Positions 37,208 to 45,711 of a stretch of 64,000 bases of DNA are shown piece by piece (the first letter of the stretch is position 1; each line of letters starts with the position of its first letter). The stretch is from the IMG/VR virus record IMGVR_UViG_3300023238_000004; one strand, 5' to 3'. Made by a program: the position numbers and the translations under genes. Source of the DNA: a virus. Below the pieces are notes generated by a model. That model had not been told where the DNA came from and made no database searches. It worked only from the letters and a program-made list of their open reading frames with translations.

Positions 37208-39190
37208 CTAAATATCTGAAATTTTTTCAACGATCAGACTTCCGTCGCCCTTCTCTGAACTTCCGTAGATCATCACGTTGTTTCCTTCAAATAAGCTGTA
37301 CTTATTGTCTTCTCTCGCCTCTGGAAAGACCACAACGCTGTCAATTGAGCAGGTTTCGTCCTCAATGGTCAGGAAGGACATCTCTTTTCCCTTACTTGCC
37401 CCTTCTTTCTTAACCTTCGTGTTAAACACTCGGGTAATGTTTGCGGCGATTGTTAGCTTCTTGCCCTTTTTCCCGTCTGCTAGTTCCTTACAGGTTGTAT
37501 TGCCGCACATGTCTGTGGTTTCAATCTTAGACATAGAGACAGGGCAACCTAAGAACTTCACTTCCTGGTCAATGATCCACTCTGGATCGTCTTCTAGGTC
37601 GTAGGGTGGGTTCTGTAGCATCTTAATCTCGTTCAAGATAATCTGCTTTCTGGACTCTTTACTGGTCCCGCCGCCCTCTTTTTTTGTAGGTGCTAGATCT
37701 CTAAAGCAAGACTGCAAATCCTTCCATCTTCTCTTAGGGTAGTTTTCTATTACCCAGTTGGTCTCAGCCTTCGTCAAGATACGAAAGATCTCATAGTCAT
37801 ATAAGACCTTGTTTCTCGTAACCTTGTCTTTGATTCCACGGAAGAACCCAATAGACCCAAGCGTCTTGAATACCGTAGAGTTCACCTTAGGAGAGAAGAA
37901 CAACAAGATCTCCATCCACGATGTGTTCTCAATCTTTTTATTTAGATGTACAAATAGATCTTCAACAGCAATGAAAGCCTTGTCCCCATTCTTTCCGGTC
38001 AAAGACTTAATGTCCTTAATGCCAAAGTAAATGGTGTCTCCAACGCAATTGAATTGACGTTTGAAGTTAGCAATACTAGGAGTTTTCAATTGAAGATCAA
38101 AAAGCTTAGCTTCTGACGCTAGTTCATAAACCTCTTGGTGAGCGTCCTGCTTGTCTTTTGCGTAACGAAAATAGGCTACAAAGAACTGTTTGATATAGTG
38201 TGCCTTGAAATAAGCACTCCAATATGAATCCAATCCATAGGCAACCGCGTGAGAATTACTGGTGGCTATTTTATTAGCATAAAAAAGATGGCTATCACTA
38301 TCAACCTCAATGTCCATAGTGGGCATTGTGCCCAAGCTTTTTATTCTAACTATTTTACTAGATTTCATGTCTACACAATCTTGAACAACTATCTCGTGAA
38401 AATATAACAGAATATCAGAAAGAGGTCTAATAACACCATCTTTGCACAAGAATTTATGCTCCATTGTGCATTTTATAGTTTTACCACACTCTAGCTCTAA
38501 CTCATAGACCTCTAGTGACCCGTGGTCATAAGTCTCTAAGACTTTTACGTATTGGTCAGACAATAAACAGGGAGATAGTACAAAATCTCCAGCTTTAATT
38601 TCTGATAGCTGCTTTTCACCGTCTGGTGTTTGTACTACTGAATCCTTCGTAATAGACTTGTTAAAACTGTATCGAGCAGACTTCTCAATCCACCCGAAGA
38701 TTTCTTCTGCGTCTTTGGCTTCAACCGTCCCTACTTTCTCGCAACCAATGATAAAGTCTTCCTTGACCTTTGCCATCACGTCTGCTTTCTTTTTACCAAT
38801 GGCCTTTCTAAGAACATCAGCCTCTGACTCAGAGAAACCCGCAAGCTCTTTGGCTATAATCATAGCTTGTTCTTGATAGATCAAAACCCCGTAGGTTGGA
38901 GCTAAGAATGGCTCAAGAGAAGGATGTAGATACTCAACGGGTTCTAGTCCGTGCTTTCTGTCTACATAGTGCTGGGACATAGACTTGCCCTGATACATAG
39001 CTTTCAAAGAGCCAGGACGAAGAATAGAGATCAGAGCCGCAAGCTCTTCCATATTTTCTGGCTTGACTTTCTTGGACCACGATCTTCCAAGATTGCTTTC
39101 AAGTTGAAAAATACCCTTGGTTCTACCTTCCGCGAAAAGCTTCCAGACTTCTGGATCATTCATCGGAATATTATCAATGTCAACTGTCAT
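37208..39190 (-). CDS. dnaE: DNA polymerase III alpha (DnaE), C-terminal piece (fingers/HhH/OB) with a mini-intein
   Basis: GIFQLES, ILRPG, TYGVLIYQEQ, LRKAIGKKK, YSFNK|intein|SHAVAY, IYFGIKDIK, OB-fold MSFLTIEDET..IDSVVVFPE. Confidence 0.92.
   Translation of the reverse strand: MTVDIDNIPMNDPEVWKLFAEGRTKGIFQLESNLGRSWSKKVKPENMEELAALISILRPGSLKAMYQGKSMSQHYVDRKHGLEPVEYLHPSLEPFLAPTYGVLIYQEQAMIIAKELAGFSESEADVLRKAIGKKKADVMAKVKEDFIIGCEKVGTVEAKDAEEIFGWIEKSARYSFNKSITKDSVVQTPDGEKQLSEIKAGDFVLSPCLLSDQYVKVLETYDHGSLEVYELELECGKTIKCTMEHKFLCKDGVIRPLSDILLYFHEIVVQDCVDMKSSKIVRIKSLGTMPTMDIEVDSDSHLFYANKIATSNSHAVAYGLDSYWSAYFKAHYIKQFFVAYFRYAKDKQDAHQEVYELASEAKLFDLQLKTPSIANFKRQFNCVGDTIYFGIKDIKSLTGKNGDKAFIAVEDLFVHLNKKIENTSWMEILLFFSPKVNSTVFKTLGSIGFFRGIKDKVTRNKVLYDYEIFRILTKAETNWVIENYPKRRWKDLQSCFRDLAPTKKEGGGTSKESRKQIILNEIKMLQNPPYDLEDDPEWIIDQEVKFLGCPVSMSKIETTDMCGNTTCKELADGKKGKKLTIAANITRVFNTKVKKEGASKGKEMSFLTIEDETCSIDSVVVFPEAREDNKYSLFEGNNVMIYGSSEKGDGSLIVEKISDI
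38255..38656 (-). mobile_element. Mini-intein (134 aa), Ser1 ... Ser-Asn, +1 Ser
   Basis: SITKDSVVQTPDG; CTMEHKF (block B); MDIEVDSDSHLFYANKIATSN. Removal restores FNKSH. Confidence 0.88.
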
Positions 39191-39341
39191 ATTTTTCCCA
39201 CACAATCAAGCAGTAATCAATGTCCGTATTTGGGACATAGCCGTCATCCCACCAGTAGTCTAAGTTACAATCTGGACACTGGCCACCATTCCATGTTTTG
39301 TCCTCAAATTCACATTCACATCTTGGGCAAGTTATGTCCAT
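39180..39341 (-). CDS. Small zinc-ribbon protein, 53 aa
   Basis: MDITCPRCECEFEDKTWNGGQCPDCNLDYWWDD...; AGGAG RBS; below the ORF-track cutoff. Confidence 0.6.
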   Translation of the reverse strand: MDITCPRCECEFEDKTWNGGQCPDCNLDYWWDDGYVPNTDIDYCLIVWEKYDS

Positions 39342-39350
39342 TCCAATCTC

Positions 39351-40046
39351 CTATTCTATGTATAGTCCACCATTAGCAAACGCCTTGTCAATCTTAGGGC
39401 TAAGTGTCTTATACATTGCCCTTCTAGTTTTAAGGAATTTAATAATGATGTTTGCCGTATCTTTTACGTCTTGAAGAGCGTCGTGAGCGTTCTCGCTTTC
39501 CATGCCCATTCGCTTTCTGACGTTGTCCATACTAATAGACTTGATGGTAGGGTCACTCTCGGTCCACAAGAACATGTCGTCCATCATGTCGTATTTCTTG
39601 ATAGGATTAAAGAACTTGTTCTGGCCCTTCTTGTCATCCCAGCCTCCATATAACTTTGCCATTCTGTTAATAATTGGCATATCATAGTTGATAATGTTGT
39701 AGCCAGCAGGAATAGGAGCAAACCAAGTCGTACCCTTCCAGTTGTGCTTGTTTACGAAGGCTAAGAACTTAGTCCACACAGCCTTTGGCTTAGGTGCCTT
39801 GGCGATCTGTTCTCTAGTCTTTCCCGTGACCTTCAAAGCCTCTTCCTCAAGAGGTGCCAGCCCCGCCGCAATAGCCTTGTCGTCATCTGTTTCTGCCCAG
39901 ATTTCACTGTTAAACTCGCCCCCCACTTTCTTCATTTCAAGAGTTCGTCCATGTAGGGCGATTGCAGCAAGCTGCGTTGGTTGACACGTATGTGGATCTC
40001 TGCCACCGGTTTCAAAGTCAAATACGATGAAGTCTCTATCTGCCAT
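39351..40046 (-). CDS. dnaQ: DnaQ/epsilon-like 3'-5' exonuclease (DEDDh)
   Basis: IVFDFETGG, AGYNIINYD and HDALQD motifs. Confidence 0.88.
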   Translation of the reverse strand: MADRDFIVFDFETGGRDPHTCQPTQLAAIALHGRTLEMKKVGGEFNSEIWAETDDDKAIAAGLAPLEEEALKVTGKTREQIAKAPKPKAVWTKFLAFVNKHNWKGTTWFAPIPAGYNIINYDMPIINRMAKLYGGWDDKKGQNKFFNPIKKYDMMDDMFLWTESDPTIKSISMDNVRKRMGMESENAHDALQDVKDTANIIIKFLKTRRAMYKTLSPKIDKAFANGGLYIE

Positions 40047-40194
40047 AATTGTTTATCTCCTTTTGTTTGTCCCATGTTTGGAGTATACTTAAAAATTTTC
40101 TACACTTTCTGTTCAATCTAAAGCCATTTGGGCTTTTATACATCAGATTGTACATCTTCCTCATTTCGTCCTGAGAATAAAACTCTATAATATC
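40036..40194 (-). pseudogene. Possible 3' stub of a LAGLIDADG-type endonuclease gene
   Basis: Translates DIIEFYSQDEMRKMYNLMYKSPNGFRLNRKCRKFLSIL...*; resembles the MY....LxRK..F tail of phage LAGLIDADG enzymes and contains the AAGGAG RBS of dnaQ. Confidence 0.4.
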
Positions 40195-40204
40195 TTAAAA
40201 CTGG

Positions 40205-40705
40205 TTAATAACAAGCTAATAAAGAATGGTTATCTGAAACAAATACGCAAAAATTATGCTTACCATCAACCATGCTAACTTTTTTAGACTCGTAATAGTC
40301 ATACAAATAACCCTCGATTAAGCTATTGTCTGTAATTATGAACTTGGGAATCTCACCATAGTTGTCTAGCATAACCTTGTTGCAAAGTACCTTTAGAGCT
40401 TCCGTAAACACGCCGGGATCTCCATCTTGATCGTAAACAGTCATGTTTGCATTTCCAGCGTAAAATAACAAATTCTCTATATCTTTGTTCACTTTCGGAG
40501 AATTTCTCTCCCAATCTAGTTTGCTGCTCATGTGTTCTTCTCCTAGGGGTGTCTCGAAGAGGTCTACGTTCTCTTCTCTGAATTGTTTTAGTTTCTCTTT
40601 CTGTGCCGCCGCTTCTGGGTGATTTGGATGATCCCTGACAGCCTGCACTTCTTGTCTGTAGATCTGTCTCACAAACTCGTCTTTGTTACTGCTATTGATT
40701 TCCAT
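40205..40705 (-). CDS. Hypothetical protein, 166 aa
   Basis: ORF track; an internal RBS+ATG (MSSKLDW) suggests a possible fusion of two ORFs. Confidence 0.5.
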   Translation of the reverse strand: MEINSSNKDEFVRQIYRQEVQAVRDHPNHPEAAAQKEKLKQFREENVDLFETPLGEEHMSSKLDWERNSPKVNKDIENLLFYAGNANMTVYDQDGDPGVFTEALKVLCNKVMLDNYGEIPKFIITDNSLIEGYLYDYYESKKVSMVDGKHNFCVFVSDNHSLLACY

Positions 40706-40904
40706 CTAGTTTCTCCAATTTTGCGTATCCAAATATCGCCCTATGTAATAGCTCAAGCGGCCATCCCCACCAGGGCACGTAAAACTCACAAGTAGAAATC
40801 TCTCTGCATGGGTTCTTACCAGCGATTGGCTGACCTTCTCTTGTCCTAAGCCACCATCTGCATAGCCACCTTGGTCTAGAGTTTCCTAGTCTGCATTCGT
40901 TCAT
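40692..40904 (-). CDS. Hypothetical protein, 70 aa
   Basis: GGAGG RBS; Trp/Cys-rich. Confidence 0.5.
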   Translation of the reverse strand: MNECRLGNSRPRWLCRWWLRTREGQPIAGKNPCREISTCEFYVPWWGWPLELLHRAIFGYAKLEKLDGNQ

Positions 40905-40992
40905 CTTTGTCCTCCGATTTTCTTTCCGTCTTTGTCAATGACCACAACTTTGTCGCCTTCTTTGACTATCTTGGTTTCGTCTTGGCTCATGT

Positions 40993-41247
40993 CTACCTCG
41001 TTTGTAAATATGGGTCGGTCTCTTTACACAGATCAAGAACACGTTCTTCCCAGCCCTTATAGTATCTACGGTTGGGTGTGCTATTCTCCATGATTTGTTT
41101 GATATCTTTCAAGGTAGAGTTTTGGAACTCGACCATAAGTCTGGCGATCTCTTCTGTGTCGTCTGACCACCCCTCCCCAAGCTCTTCGTCTTTCTTTCTT
41201 ATTAGCTCAAGAGCTTGTTTCTTTGCATTCATCTTTTTTTTCTCCAA
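40993..41247 (-). CDS. Hypothetical protein, 84 aa
   Basis: ORF track. Confidence 0.5.
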   Translation of the reverse strand: MEKKKMNAKKQALELIRKKDEELGEGWSDDTEEIARLMVEFQNSTLKDIKQIMENSTPNRRYYKGWEERVLDLCKETDPYLQTR

Positions 41248-42085
41248 TTAGTTCTTGGATTTCCATAAGCTTATCAAGCAACATGAGACCCAAGATATCA
41301 AATTTAACGTGACCCAGTGCTTCTAGGTCGTTCATTTCTAGTCCTGCAATCATTTCGCCATTCTTTTCTGGCAACATAGGACAAACCTTGTCAAGAGGCT
41401 CCCTAGAGATAACCACACCAGCGGCGTGTTTACCTTGACTCTTGAATGTGCCCTCAAGTCTAATAGCCTGATCGAAGTATGGAGCATAGTCACCTTTTAA
41501 GTTTCCCTCTTCATCTAAGTGGCACCACTGACGCAAGCTTTCTGGGTCATTGATGAGGGTCCATCTGATAATAGAACGATCCTCTTCATCCATCAATTCA
41601 AGTTGGTCAGAGATAGCCGCTTCATCAGGGATTGGCTTAGTCATAGCGTTCATTTCATTGAAACCACAAGCTTTGTTCATACGCAAGACTTCCTTGAGAG
41701 AACTTCTACCTTGAAGTCGCCCATAGGTAATCATCTGGCTAACGTTCTCTGCTCCATACCTATACTTGAGATAGGCAATCACTTCATCACGCTTATCTCC
41801 TGGAACGTCGATATCAATATCGGGCAGGGATACGTGTCCACGACCATAATCTAAAGACTTATTAAAGTCAGGTCTATCGGCCTTGTCGTAAATCCACAAT
41901 ACATAGCTATTATTTAGGTTTCCTTGACTATAAAATTCTCTATTTGAAATTAAAAATCTGTAGTATTCTACACATTGATCTATAGTAGAAATCAAATCAA
42001 GTTCATTTTGAAGATGAGGATTACGACGCACCTCCACAAGCTTGTCTTTGTTATGATTTATTCCAAAGTCTGTAATTTTTGCCAT
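41207..42085 (-). CDS. dnaE: DnaE catalytic (palm) piece
   Basis: SLPDIDID (two catalytic Asp), QMITYGRL, QGKHAAGVVIS, KFDILGL (third Asp). Confidence 0.92.
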   Translation of the reverse strand: MAKITDFGINHNKDKLVEVRRNPHLQNELDLISTIDQCVEYYRFLISNREFYSQGNLNNSYVLWIYDKADRPDFNKSLDYGRGHVSLPDIDIDVPGDKRDEVIAYLKYRYGAENVSQMITYGRLQGRSSLKEVLRMNKACGFNEMNAMTKPIPDEAAISDQLELMDEEDRSIIRWTLINDPESLRQWCHLDEEGNLKGDYAPYFDQAIRLEGTFKSQGKHAAGVVISREPLDKVCPMLPEKNGEMIAGLEMNDLEALGHVKFDILGLMLLDKLMEIQELIGEKKDECKETSS

Positions 42086-42292
42086 TTTGATTCCAATCTT
42101 ATTTTTCCTGATAAATAATCTCTAACTTCTAGTATTTGAGGTAGAGATCCATATCTTAGTTCGTAAAGCTCTTGATTTTTCTTTTTGTTAAGGTTTCCCT
42201 CGTAAGGAAGCTCAAACCTTATTATTTCAATATTCTTTCTTAAATAAGAACAAACTCCAAAACATTGTCTAGGGTAAAACTTCTTATATTTT

Positions 42293-42568
42293 TTATTCCA
42301 TTGTTTCCCTATGCATAAAATCTTCAAAAGTAAATTCCTGAAAAGATACATTATCAGGAGTGTTTCTCCCCGAATTATAGAATCTCTGAAACAGTAAGTC
42401 ATACTCAATAGGGTCAATCTTTGTGATTCTAATAAGGTAAGAAATCAAACAACCAGCAGCAGAGTTATGCACAGCTAACCCTTCTACGTTGTAAGTGTGG
42501 GAGTTCTCGACGGTTAGATCGTTAACAAGTCCAGAGTATTTAATTTTTCTTTTCTTTTTTATTTGCAT
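42293..42568 (-). CDS. dnaE: Split-intein C-half (35 aa) plus a short DnaE extein
   Basis: MQIKKKRKIKYSGLVNDLTVENSHTYNVEGLAVHN|SAAGCLISYLIRITKIDPIEYDLLFQRFYNSGRN; IntC spans 42464-42568. Confidence 0.9.
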   Translation of the reverse strand: MQIKKKRKIKYSGLVNDLTVENSHTYNVEGLAVHNSAAGCLISYLIRITKIDPIEYDLLFQRFYNSGRNTPDNVSFQEFTFEDFMHRETME

Positions 42569-42579
42569 GGTGCCACTTT

Positions 42580-42714
42580 CTAGCTTTGAGGTAATTTGTC
42601 TTTAACTTCTACGATTGTTTTCTCATTTATAATAAAGTCTGGAAAATACATCCTAAAGACACCATTTTCGTCTTCATATTCAATTGGGTTGTTATAATAG
42701 AACCCCGACCTAGA
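42580..42714 (-). pseudogene. Remnant of a PD-(D/E)XK endonuclease between the split-intein halves
   Basis: In frame after the IntN stop: SRSGFYYNNPIEYEDENGVFRMYFPDFIINEKTIVEVKDKLPQS*, with a YxPDF...IVEVK motif. Confidence 0.65.
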
Positions 42715-43896
42715 CTATATTTCTGTGATTTCGTCAAATTCTGTCAAGTCTTTTGCTGTAACCCAGCCTCTATTGCTCGTTAAGAACTTGTGATCTTCTG
42801 TACACCGAATAATTTTGCCGTTTTCCATGGTCATTTCAATTATTTCTTCATCCACTAGATAAGAAAGTGTATCTGCAACAATTTGCGAACCACCAAAAGC
42901 GTCTACAACGCTTTCTCCTTTCTTTATTATAGAGATTGGTTTCAATAAGCCGTTAGACATTCTCACCCTCGTGTCTGGCAAAAAGCACCCTCTTCCTGGT
43001 CCGCTGATCCAGCCCTTGCTTTTGATGAAGTTAATGATGTCCCATACAATCAAGAAATAACCAAACAGCTTCGCCCCCTTAATAACTCCAAACTCTTCGT
43101 TGAATTGGTCTAGGTATCTTTGCTTGGCTTCTTCTTTTTCTACTTTGCCCGTCTTCCCAAGTAATTCATTCCAGCCTTGTCGGCATAGCTGCTTTAGATA
43201 CTCTTCCTCGGACTCTCCATTTGGAGTGGGGAAGGTTGGCAACATTGGCTTCTCAAGAATATCATACTCTGTACAAGAGTCTACAATACTGCAAATATCC
43301 TCACAAACAACTGCGTGATCCTTGTTAGGTACGCCAAAGCTATCTTCTGTGAAGAACTTGATATAGGGTTTTAGTTCGTCTTGAACTTTACCCTTACCAA
43401 TATACTTCATCATGTCGGGAAGGGGCACCTTCAACCCAGAGCATAAAGAAATTCTATGAATATCTACCTCTGACTTGTCCGTGTAGAAGTAATTCTTAAT
43501 CTTCCCGCCCTTCAAGTAATTATCGCCACCTGGGCACAGTGGCGTCTGTTGCTTACGTCCAACATAGATCAAGTTACCACGTTTGCAGTACTCTTTGATG
43601 ACAGTCATTTCATCTTGGTGCTGAATAGCCGACACAATTGCGATAAGGTCAAACCAGCCATCTTTGTTTTTAGAAAACAGACTAAACCCATCAAAAGAAC
43701 ACCCAATGATTGGCTTTATACCAGCTTTCTTACACTCTTGAAAGAATCGGACAGTGCCCGAGATACTCTTGTAATCAGAAATACCACATGCGGTATATCC
43801 ATTGTCTTTGCATTTCTTAACTAAGGCCTTGGGTTTTGAGAATCCTAGTTGTAAGCTGTAGTGCGTGTAGTTACACAGTGGTGCGAAATTTTCCAA
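42715..43896 (-). CDS. dnaE: DnaE N-terminal piece (PHP domain to GPGRG) plus split-intein N-half (90 aa)
   Basis: THYSL, GIKPIIGC, YFLIVWD, GPGRG|CFLPDTRV...CTEDHKF...AKDLTEFDEITEI*; IntN spans 42718-42987; GGAGG RBS before a TTG start. Confidence 0.92.
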   Translation of the reverse strand: MENFAPLCNYTHYSLQLGFSKPKALVKKCKDNGYTACGISDYKSISGTVRFFQECKKAGIKPIIGCSFDGFSLFSKNKDGWFDLIAIVSAIQHQDEMTVIKEYCKRGNLIYVGRKQQTPLCPGGDNYLKGGKIKNYFYTDKSEVDIHRISLCSGLKVPLPDMMKYIGKGKVQDELKPYIKFFTEDSFGVPNKDHAVVCEDICSIVDSCTEYDILEKPMLPTFPTPNGESEEEYLKQLCRQGWNELLGKTGKVEKEEAKQRYLDQFNEEFGVIKGAKLFGYFLIVWDIINFIKSKGWISGPGRGCFLPDTRVRMSNGLLKPISIIKKGESVVDAFGGSQIVADTLSYLVDEEIIEMTMENGKIIRCTEDHKFLTSNRGWVTAKDLTEFDEITEI

Positions 43897-45024: not shown

Positions 45025-45711
45025 TCACTCCTTGTGTTTAAGTATTAGCTCACACTGTTCATATAAGTATTCTAGTGTAAACTGGTTTTTCATTATGTTG
45101 ATATCTTTGTGAACTAACCAAATGTTGTCTTTGGTGTACCCTTCTTCGCTGTCTATCCTATCCACAGAGACGGTTTGACAATTTTGCTTCTCTTTTGTTT
45201 TCTTAAAAGCTATTGGCGTCTTGGTCATCGCACACAAGCCTCCTTGCTCTTCATACTTGTCCCAAATGTCTTCAATCGTTATGTTAAAGTCTATATTTCT
45301 TCTTTTTGCTTGACATTTTACAGAATGAAAAAACCTACCAGGAATTGTGTGGTGAGATCTTTGCCTATTGTGGAAATCCTCTTGTTTTTGACTATAGGTT
45401 TTTTCTCTAATGGTGATTCCGTGTTTTTCTAGTGCTTTTCTAACTATAGACTTTCTTTTGAATCCTCCTAGCTCAGCCACCTCTTTCAATGTCATGTTTT
45501 TGTCTACATAGTATTCTTCTAAAAATTCTTTTGTGAAAGTTTTAGAGCTATCATACACGTGACCTCTGCTAATGCCATGACGACTCAACGCCTGAGACAC
45601 AGAGTTTGAAGACTTGATGCCAGTCTCTTTGGTTATGACTTGGATGCTTTTAAGTTGATTTACATAGTGTTCTTCAAGAAAATCTTTGGTTAACATGTCT
45701 TTTGGTCCCAT
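45025..45711 (-). CDS. HNH homing endonuclease, apparently intact
   Basis: Two FTKEFLEExY HTH repeats; QGGLCAMTK...SVDRIDSEEGYTKDNIWLVHKDINIMK. Confidence 0.85.
   Translation of the reverse strand: MGPKDMLTKDFLEEHYVNQLKSIQVITKETGIKSSNSVSQALSRHGISRGHVYDSSKTFTKEFLEEYYVDKNMTLKEVAELGGFKRKSIVRKALEKHGITIREKTYSQKQEDFHNRQRSHHTIPGRFFHSVKCQAKRRNIDFNITIEDIWDKYEEQGGLCAMTKTPIAFKKTKEKQNCQTVSVDRIDSEEGYTKDNIWLVHKDINIMKNQFTLEYLYEQCELILKHKE

Follow-up and report, generated by a model that had tools for sequence, protein, structure and literature searches.

Fractured genes were defined by Dassa, London, Stoddard, Schueler-Furman and Pietrokovski in 2009, and include DnaE-1 to DnaE-3 with split inteins at new sites (PMC2677866). 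In their model, the endonuclease is lost at step III, an event for which the endonuclease-less locus gp41-7 is cited, and the available part of that paper reports GIY-YIG and Vsr-like endonucleases only (PMC2677866). Here, we analyzed a split intein in the gene for the alpha subunit of DNA polymerase III (Pol III), DnaE, of a virus (IMG/VR record IMGVR_UViG_3300023238_000004). The stretch of DNA that was analyzed, 64,000 nucleotides (nt) in length, is referred to as the window. We are fairly confident that the locus is a fractured DnaE gene, in which a mini-intein in the GS motif was split by a free-standing homing-endonuclease gene that has since been deleted to a dead stump.

Positions are given in window coordinates, and the DnaE pieces, the intein halves, and the inserts all lie on the minus strand. 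The open reading frame (ORF) 43896-42715 encodes 393 amino acids (aa), comprising the PHP domain, the start of the Pol III alpha NTPase/palm profile up to GPGRG and then, in frame, the 90-aa N-terminal intein half (IntN). The ORF 42568-42293 begins with the 35-aa C-terminal intein half (IntC), followed by SAAGCL onward. The C-extein was mapped by alignment to the Pol III alpha structures 2HPI and 2HNH. The features of this region are as follows.

42988..43896, minus strand: DnaE N-extein, 303 aa, ending in GPGRG (Pfam PHP, E 1.4e-14; Pfam DNA_pol3_alpha, positions 1-65).
42718..42987, minus strand: IntN, 90 aa, from CFLPD to DEITEI, with Cys1, block B CTEDH and an acidic tail; net charge -6.
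42715..42717, minus strand: TAG that ends the IntN ORF, also found in the sister contigs L001-L003 and in the independent assemblies L104 and L105 (100% identity).
42569..42714, minus strand: gap between the halves, 146 nt, which is not a multiple of 3 and hence places IntC in another frame.
42464..42568, minus strand: IntC, 35 aa, starting with MQIKKKRKIK, with block F DLTVE and block G VHN; 100% identical to L002.
42344..42463, minus strand: C-extein stub, 40 aa (SAAGCL to NVS); DNA_pol3_alpha positions 66-101, corresponding to E. coli DnaE 364-398.
42293..42343, minus strand: foreign tail of 16 aa (FQEFTFEDFMHRETME) and TAA, which truncate the C-extein ORF; absent in L001-L003.

The two halves together carry the residues needed for splicing. 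Cys1 directly follows GPGRG, as in class 1 HINT inteins, and is invariant in 26 alleles. The block B TxxH motif (CTEDH, with T63 and H66 invariant) aligns with the NrdJ-1 and DnaE inteins in the Protein Data Bank (PDB). The invariant IntN columns across the 26 alleles are C1, F2, P4, I18, Y43, E47, C62, T63, H66, and T70. At the other end, the block F Asp, the C-terminal His-Asn, and Ser+1 are all present (DLTVE ... VHN|S), as aligned to six alleles. C1, T63/H66, the block F Asp, and HN|S also align with two contiguous inteins at the same site, those of the metagenomic sequence P0018 and of Lactococcus phage 949 ORF116. Among PDB chains, the best match of IntN was the NrdJ-1 split intein (8UBS, E 1.6e-6), followed by cyanobacterial DnaE inteins. 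IntC has a net charge of +3, with +6 in its first 12 residues, opposite the -6 of IntN. Conceivably, the halves merely hold the DnaE fragments together like a clamp, the ability to ligate them having been lost. We regard this as quite improbable, as every catalytic residue (C1, TxxH, HN, and Ser+1) is present and invariant across alleles. Moreover, the break lies inside the GS motif, where continuity of the backbone should matter for nucleotide binding.

By residue counts along the HMMER alignment to Pol III alpha chains of known structure, the insertion falls between G363 and S364 of E. coli (G425 and S426 of Taq). We take G363|S364 to be the hG[GS] motif of the Pol-beta-like nucleotidyltransferase palm, which contacts the incoming nucleotide. 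Ser+1 is the Ser of this GS nucleotide-binding motif. The two Pfam DNA_pol3_alpha matches abut across the intein, with positions 1-65 stopping exactly at GPGRG and positions 66-101 beginning exactly at Ser+1. The sequence GPGRGSAAGCL is uninterrupted in 74 of 78 related IMG/VR loci, which indicates a precise in-frame insertion at a conserved host site. When 1.84 billion cluster representatives were searched with IntN, 1843 matches were obtained. Among the best 150, at least 81 have the same element after the G-x-(G/A)RG of a DnaE, and at least 50 of these end within ~10 residues of the window IntN end, i.e., they are likewise split. The window intein is split where the phage 949 intein has its internal LAGLIDADG-like domain, at the canonical endonuclease-insertion point, as in fractured genes. 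Among the PHROGs, families of N-terminal helicase and polymerase fragments have an IntN of the kind seen here at their end.

The split could be only apparent if the TAG were an assembly or sequencing error, or were read as an amino acid, in a really contiguous intein. We consider this almost negligible. Positions 41700-43100 are 100% identical in two other, independent assemblies, a 102-kb JGI contig (3300023240) and an ENA MEGAHIT contig (ERZ27315896). The three sister contigs, which are 99.6-100% identical to the window across the N-extein, IntN, and IntC, have the same TAG, and the allele clusters mentioned above (at least 50) have their stop at the corresponding point. The 91-aa IntC protein occurs in exactly this form on 16 contigs from several samples, 13 of which are 50-200 kb long. 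TAG is an ordinary stop here, because each of the three stop codons terminates some of the long ORFs of the window (TAA 22, TAG 16, and TGA 13, i.e., TAG in 16 of 51). The frame past the IntN TAG runs through YFPDFIINEKTIVEVK and then meets a second in-frame TAG. Since IntC is in another frame, and because of this second TAG, read-through cannot reach IntC. Recoding or read-through of TAG was therefore rejected.

These results bear on an earlier note on this DNA, made from the sequence alone. It had described a split intein whose halves, a 90-aa IntN and a 35-aa IntC, lie in separate ORFs of different frames, 146 nt apart, and its coordinates, lengths, frames, and motifs proved correct. The same holds for the acidic end of IntN and the very basic IntC, and for its statement that the site differs from that of the cyanobacterial split DnaE. 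Assembly error in the TAG, which it had named as a way to be wrong, does not explain the split.

The gap between the halves contains an endonuclease stump of 40 codons, which keeps a PD...ExK core (in YFPDFIINEKTIVEVK) and the last ~38 nt before the IntC ATG. Its Pfam matches are all weak (DUF7487, positions 169-197/220, E 3e-4; TnsA-like N; PDDEXK_3). Relative to L002, the window has a 95-nt internal deletion near 42600-42606, flanked by TTAAAG microhomology, and the stump of the sister contigs is longer by these 95 nt. The L002 stump aligned to residues 181-258 of the intact 266-aa endonuclease of L087 with 42% identity (E 2e-19). L082 matches as well, with PDFIINEKTIVEVKG identical in its sequence. 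Judged by these alignments, the gap peptide is a homologue of the C-terminal third of intact endonucleases at the same site. Where the window has only a stump, which corresponds to the endonuclease-loss step of the fractured-gene model, allelic loci have an intact gene between the halves (L082, L083, L087, and L097-L102), and the ORF lengths include 266 aa in L087, 302 aa in L082, 339 aa in L083, 276 aa in L099, and 318 aa in L101. In the phage of L097, the genes are arranged in the same order as in the window.

The intact family comprises at least 91 clusters, all unnamed. Its members have two CxxC pairs that form a C4 zinc ribbon (C57 invariant; C25, C28, and C60 nearly so), and the residues E160, P196, D197, E207, and K209, which constitute a PD-(D/E)XK core, are invariant. 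The AlphaFold (AF2) model of the family had a pLDDT of 89. Its top Foldseek matches were to TnsA, with probability 0.99-1.0 and E ~0.02, and no match had E <= 0.001. Bax1, RecU, and lambda exonuclease came next. The endonuclease is a zinc ribbon joined to a TnsA-like PD-(D/E)XK nuclease domain. The window stump cannot be active, because the zinc ribbon and the upstream catalytic Glu are gone.

The EDxHD, or Vsr-like, homing endonucleases such as I-Bth0305I have an E, D, x, H, D motif with His as the general base and no zinc site (PMC3239194). Membership in this group was rejected, as the family has no invariant His, carries ExK and a C4 zinc ribbon instead, and Vsr appeared only at rank 49 in the fold search. 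Neither the endonuclease sequence nor its profile matched any PDB chain, I-Bth0305I (3R3P) included. The literature searched made no mention of DUF7487, nor of a TnsA-like homing endonuclease together with split inteins.

By IntN alignment, 80 IMG/VR loci were fetched, and in 55 of them the element is at the DnaE site and its IntC could be located. The element is split in 48 of the 55 loci and runs on in frame in 7. In 34 split loci, representing 25 distinct IntN sequences, the gap is at least 800 nt and holds this endonuclease family; one further locus has a 1017-nt gap without a family match. The gap measures 150-799 nt in seven split loci, six with frameshifted or truncated family remnants and one (719 nt) without a family match, and 20-87 nt in the remaining six. 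Gap lengths in IMG/VR run from ~1060 nt to 20 nt, and the 146-nt gap of the window sits late in this decay series. The four loci with the shortest recognisable remnants all keep the 3' end of the endonuclease, ...(K/E)A(R/K)(K/R)xH, directly upstream of or overlapping the IntC start codon. This 3' end has presumably been retained since it carries the translation start region of IntC.

In one of the seven in-frame loci, L155:3501-4625, IntN continues in frame into a full-length endonuclease of the family, giving 374 aa from Cys1, and IntC is a separate, overlapping ORF. L155 may represent a step between an endonuclease that stands free and one that is internal to the intein.

The ratio of nonsynonymous to synonymous substitution rates (dN/dS) of the intein halves was 0.04-0.11 when endonuclease-less loci were compared with endonuclease-bearing relatives. 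Therefore, the halves are under purifying selection in related phages. Such selection on the halves throughout the series supports the view that the split intein is kept as the host needs it, with the endonuclease expendable.

The earlier note had read the gap as a dead PD-(D/E)XK endonuclease in frame after the TAG and as a late decay stage of a fractured gene. Homology to the intact endonucleases between the halves bears out the former, and the longer stump of the sisters together with the gap series bears out the latter. Both kinds of relatives that it had suggested looking for exist, contiguous (P0018 and phage 949) and with an intact endonuclease. We further suggest, tentatively and at somewhat less than even likelihood, that these ORFs are an undescribed homing-endonuclease family tied to one split point. 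Their 3' end would survive as the IntC start region, and the window and its relatives would form a series of gain, fusion (L155), decay, and loss.

On the proposed explanation, a mini-intein would first have occupied the GS motif of DnaE, separating its Gly from its Ser (E. coli G363|S364). A free-standing endonuclease gene would then have inserted at the usual endonuclease site of the intein and thereby split it. In this lineage, the endonuclease would have decayed by loss of its N-terminal ~170 codons, and later of 95 nt more, so that the remaining stump would include the 3' end with the IntC translation start region. IntN and IntC would be made as two polypeptides from one transcript. The halves are probably co-transcribed, because no terminator-like site was found between them on the coding strand. 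We infer that the acidic tail of IntN and the basic head of IntC associate and that the predicted split intein then trans-splices GPGRG to SAAGCL, which would rebuild the active-site GS motif of a functional polymerase. The spliced product would have 359 aa here (303 and 40 DnaE residues and the 16-aa tail), and would then assemble noncovalently with two further DnaE pieces.

The 16-aa tail stems from a second break in the gene, which the earlier note omitted. The two features involved are given below.

41837..42352, minus strand: orphan insertion of ~516 nt, absent from the sisters, which supplies the new stop, a 207-nt spacer and the 84-aa extension of DnaE piece 3.
41207..42085, minus strand: DnaE piece 3, 292 aa, with the 84-aa orphan extension followed by HVSLPDIDIDV to KFDILG, i.e., the rest of the palm (DNA_pol3_alpha positions 98-260, E 1.5e-32).

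In the sisters, the IntC ORF runs for 281 aa, through PDIDIDV, whereas the C-extein of the window stops after 40 DnaE residues and the tail. The insertion point is 2 residues before the catalytic D401 (PDIDID). The guanine-cytosine content of the insert is 28-34% versus 40-46% in the flanks. Identity to L002 is 100% in IntN and IntC and 89% over 66 nt starting ~130 nt upstream of the insert. Over the 63 nt directly upstream it is ~65%, an estimate from the codon display; of this segment, BLAST aligned no more than 21 nt, which matched an unrelated part of L002. Downstream of the insert, identity is 90% over the first 300 nt, 96-97% further on, and 99% at the start of piece 4. This gradient of flanking divergence looks like a co-conversion tract from recombination with a divergent donor.

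No homologues of the insert or its peptides were found in IMG/VR, in a 5.8-billion-protein index (self only), in the phage collection, in the rest of the genome, in Pfam or in PHROGs. The ESM Atlas gave sub-threshold leads only (0.82-0.84) from the insert peptides to LAGLIDADG-fragment clusters, which are not evidence. At the breaks, Rfam yielded no match that would indicate a group I intron or another RNA, even with E allowed up to 10; RNA folding gave z-scores of +0.5 and +0.55, and no tRNA was present. A group I intron was thus rejected as the 516-nt insert (z-score +0.5). Decay of an extein duplicate was rejected as the source of the 84-aa extension, since protein and DNA alignments were no better than shuffles and only the codons (N/H)VS are visibly duplicated. 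Gene callers place an ORF of 89-97 aa, of no family, inside the insert.

The insertion is young, because it is absent from sisters that are ~99% identical in the upstream DnaE. This raises the alternative that the gene died recently: the insertion before the catalytic Asp pair would have killed DnaE, and the halves would be intact only for want of decay time. The youth of the insertion agrees with this, as do the end of the C-extein ORF after 40 DnaE residues and the lack of homologues of the 84-aa extension and the 16-aa tail. Nevertheless, we judge a recently dead gene to be unlikely. The phage persists, as the 16 contigs with the exact allele indicate, and this DnaE is the sole Pol III alpha of a 175.8-kb genome rated 100% complete. 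Open frames and motifs are kept in all DnaE pieces. Furthermore, the DnaE of an unrelated phage contig is broken at the same Pfam position (see below), and a working split enzyme has a precedent in the NrdA of Aeromonas phage Aeh1, in the available part of the source (PMC3045599).

The unrelated contig is G001, which holds L082 (and L093/L094/L095). Its DnaE is broken at Pfam position 100, and the C-part lies 5 kb upstream of the N-part and has its own N-terminal extension of ~80 aa. A split of DnaE at this point may be tolerated, because G001 is broken at the same position. At L064:5125-5237, a related DnaE diverges in frame exactly at the second break (YIS, then FPDDTNL...), and the contig ends ~115-120 nt later. 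Either an insertion or a chimeric end of the contig may account for this divergence.

Some observations weigh against a fractured gene that still functions by trans-splicing. The second break truncates the C-extein, so that DnaE as a whole may recently have become a pseudogene. For IntC, a convincing Shine-Dalgarno sequence was not found. In addition, the window IntN and IntC are 100% identical to those of the sisters and the next alleles are synonymously saturated, so that the dN/dS values speak for the relatives only. We still favor the fractured gene with a decayed endonuclease and halves that would splice in trans.

Further features lie in the rest of DnaE and in its surroundings. The remaining DnaE piece is as follows.

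37208..39205, minus strand: DnaE piece 4, 665 aa, with the fingers, the OB fold, and a cis mini-intein after FNK (Pfam DNA_pol3_finger, E 5.5e-50; Intein_splicing, E 2.3e-5).

The cis mini-intein of this C-terminal piece (38255-38656, minus strand; Ser1, ending in TSN|S) lies 3 residues after the cyanobacterial split-intein site. Two genes upstream of DnaE, a 228-aa ORF (45025-45711, minus strand) has a C-terminal half that resembles an HNH-type endonuclease, and it may be an additional homing endonuclease of the free-standing kind. Between the 84-aa ORF and a dnaQ-like gene (window 40046-40993, minus strand) lie ~750 nt that include a 166-aa ORF (40705-40205). The sister L002 has only ~200 nt at that place, which is another recent indel in the polymerase gene cluster. 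Among cultured phages, no DNA similarity to the whole region was found, and the best protein-level match was below 35% identity.

The locus is an ordinary representative of fractured genes, a class that is large and already known, and gives their model one more well-documented example. The earlier note had overstated its novelty, as fractured DnaE loci, non-cyanobacterial sites, and endonuclease loss already appear in the available part of the 2009 paper (PMC2677866), and the allele family is very common in metagenomes. The new details are an endonuclease type outside the 2009 families, with a zinc ribbon and a TnsA-like domain, and the second, recent 516-nt break. The endonuclease family and its natural decay series are the parts that most deserve the attention of specialists. 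At one site of a phage polymerase, public data contain every stage of the fractured-gene model: a mini-intein that is contiguous, an intein whose interior holds a LAGLIDADG-like domain, intein halves separated by a free-standing endonuclease, a fusion of IntN to the endonuclease, frameshifted or truncated stumps, and near-complete loss. The family is also a source of many natural split inteins that have Cys1, Ser+1, and an IntC of 35 aa and are candidate trans-splicing tools, although nothing marks the one in the window as special. The second break, beside the catalytic aspartates, raises the question of how many pieces a replicative polymerase tolerates.

Comparison with described systems places the locus as follows. 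For the second break, a model is provided by the NrdA of Aeromonas phage Aeh1, which is split by the MobE homing endonuclease, i.e., by a mobile insertion without an intein that creates new terminal peptides (available part of PMC3045599). Unlike in Aeh1 NrdA, as described there, no endonuclease gene is recognisable in the 516-nt insert.

Among inteins with solved structures, NrdJ-1 (8UBS) matches IntN best, with a different host protein and site and only modest identity. Both gp41-1 and NrdJ-1 have Ser+1 and halves of similar size. The Ser+1 to which the earlier note drew attention is present, but as a distinguishing trait it was overstated. Judging from sequence, orthogonality of the window intein to NrdJ-1 and gp41-1 is plausible.

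Like the cyanobacterial Ssp and Npu DnaE inteins, the window intein is a split intein of Pol III alpha that has Cys1, an IntN of ~100 aa that is acidic, and an IntC of ~35 aa that is basic. The PDB matches of IntN to these inteins (1ZD7, 4KL5, and 2KEQ; E 5e-4 to 2e-3) are limited to block B. The window intein interrupts the GS motif of the palm, whereas the cyanobacterial intein lies before CFNK, far downstream in the fingers region. It also has Ser instead of Cys at +1, and its halves are in cis, 146 nt apart, instead of at separate loci.

Lactococcus phage 949 ORF116 and the metagenomic P0018 also have their inteins at the GRG|C...HN|S point, with splicing blocks that can be aligned to those of the window, but these inteins are contiguous. 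In phage 949, the intein forms a single polypeptide with LAGLIDADG-like motifs mid-way, and P0018 is a mini-intein without an endonuclease. ORF116 (L096:3215-7504, NC_015263) is annotated as 'DNA polymerase', and the record does not annotate the intein.

The closest likeness is to the fractured genes of Dassa et al., as far as the available part of PMC2677866 describes them. In both, the host gene's N-part with IntN, a free-standing endonuclease gene (reduced to a stump in the window), and IntC with the C-part of the host gene follow each other on one strand, mainly in phages, and the 3' end of the endonuclease overlaps IntC. In contrast to those fractured genes, the endonuclease here combines a C4 zinc ribbon with a canonical E...PD...ExK TnsA-like nuclease domain, and in the window it is present as a partly deleted stump, neither as a full gene nor absent.

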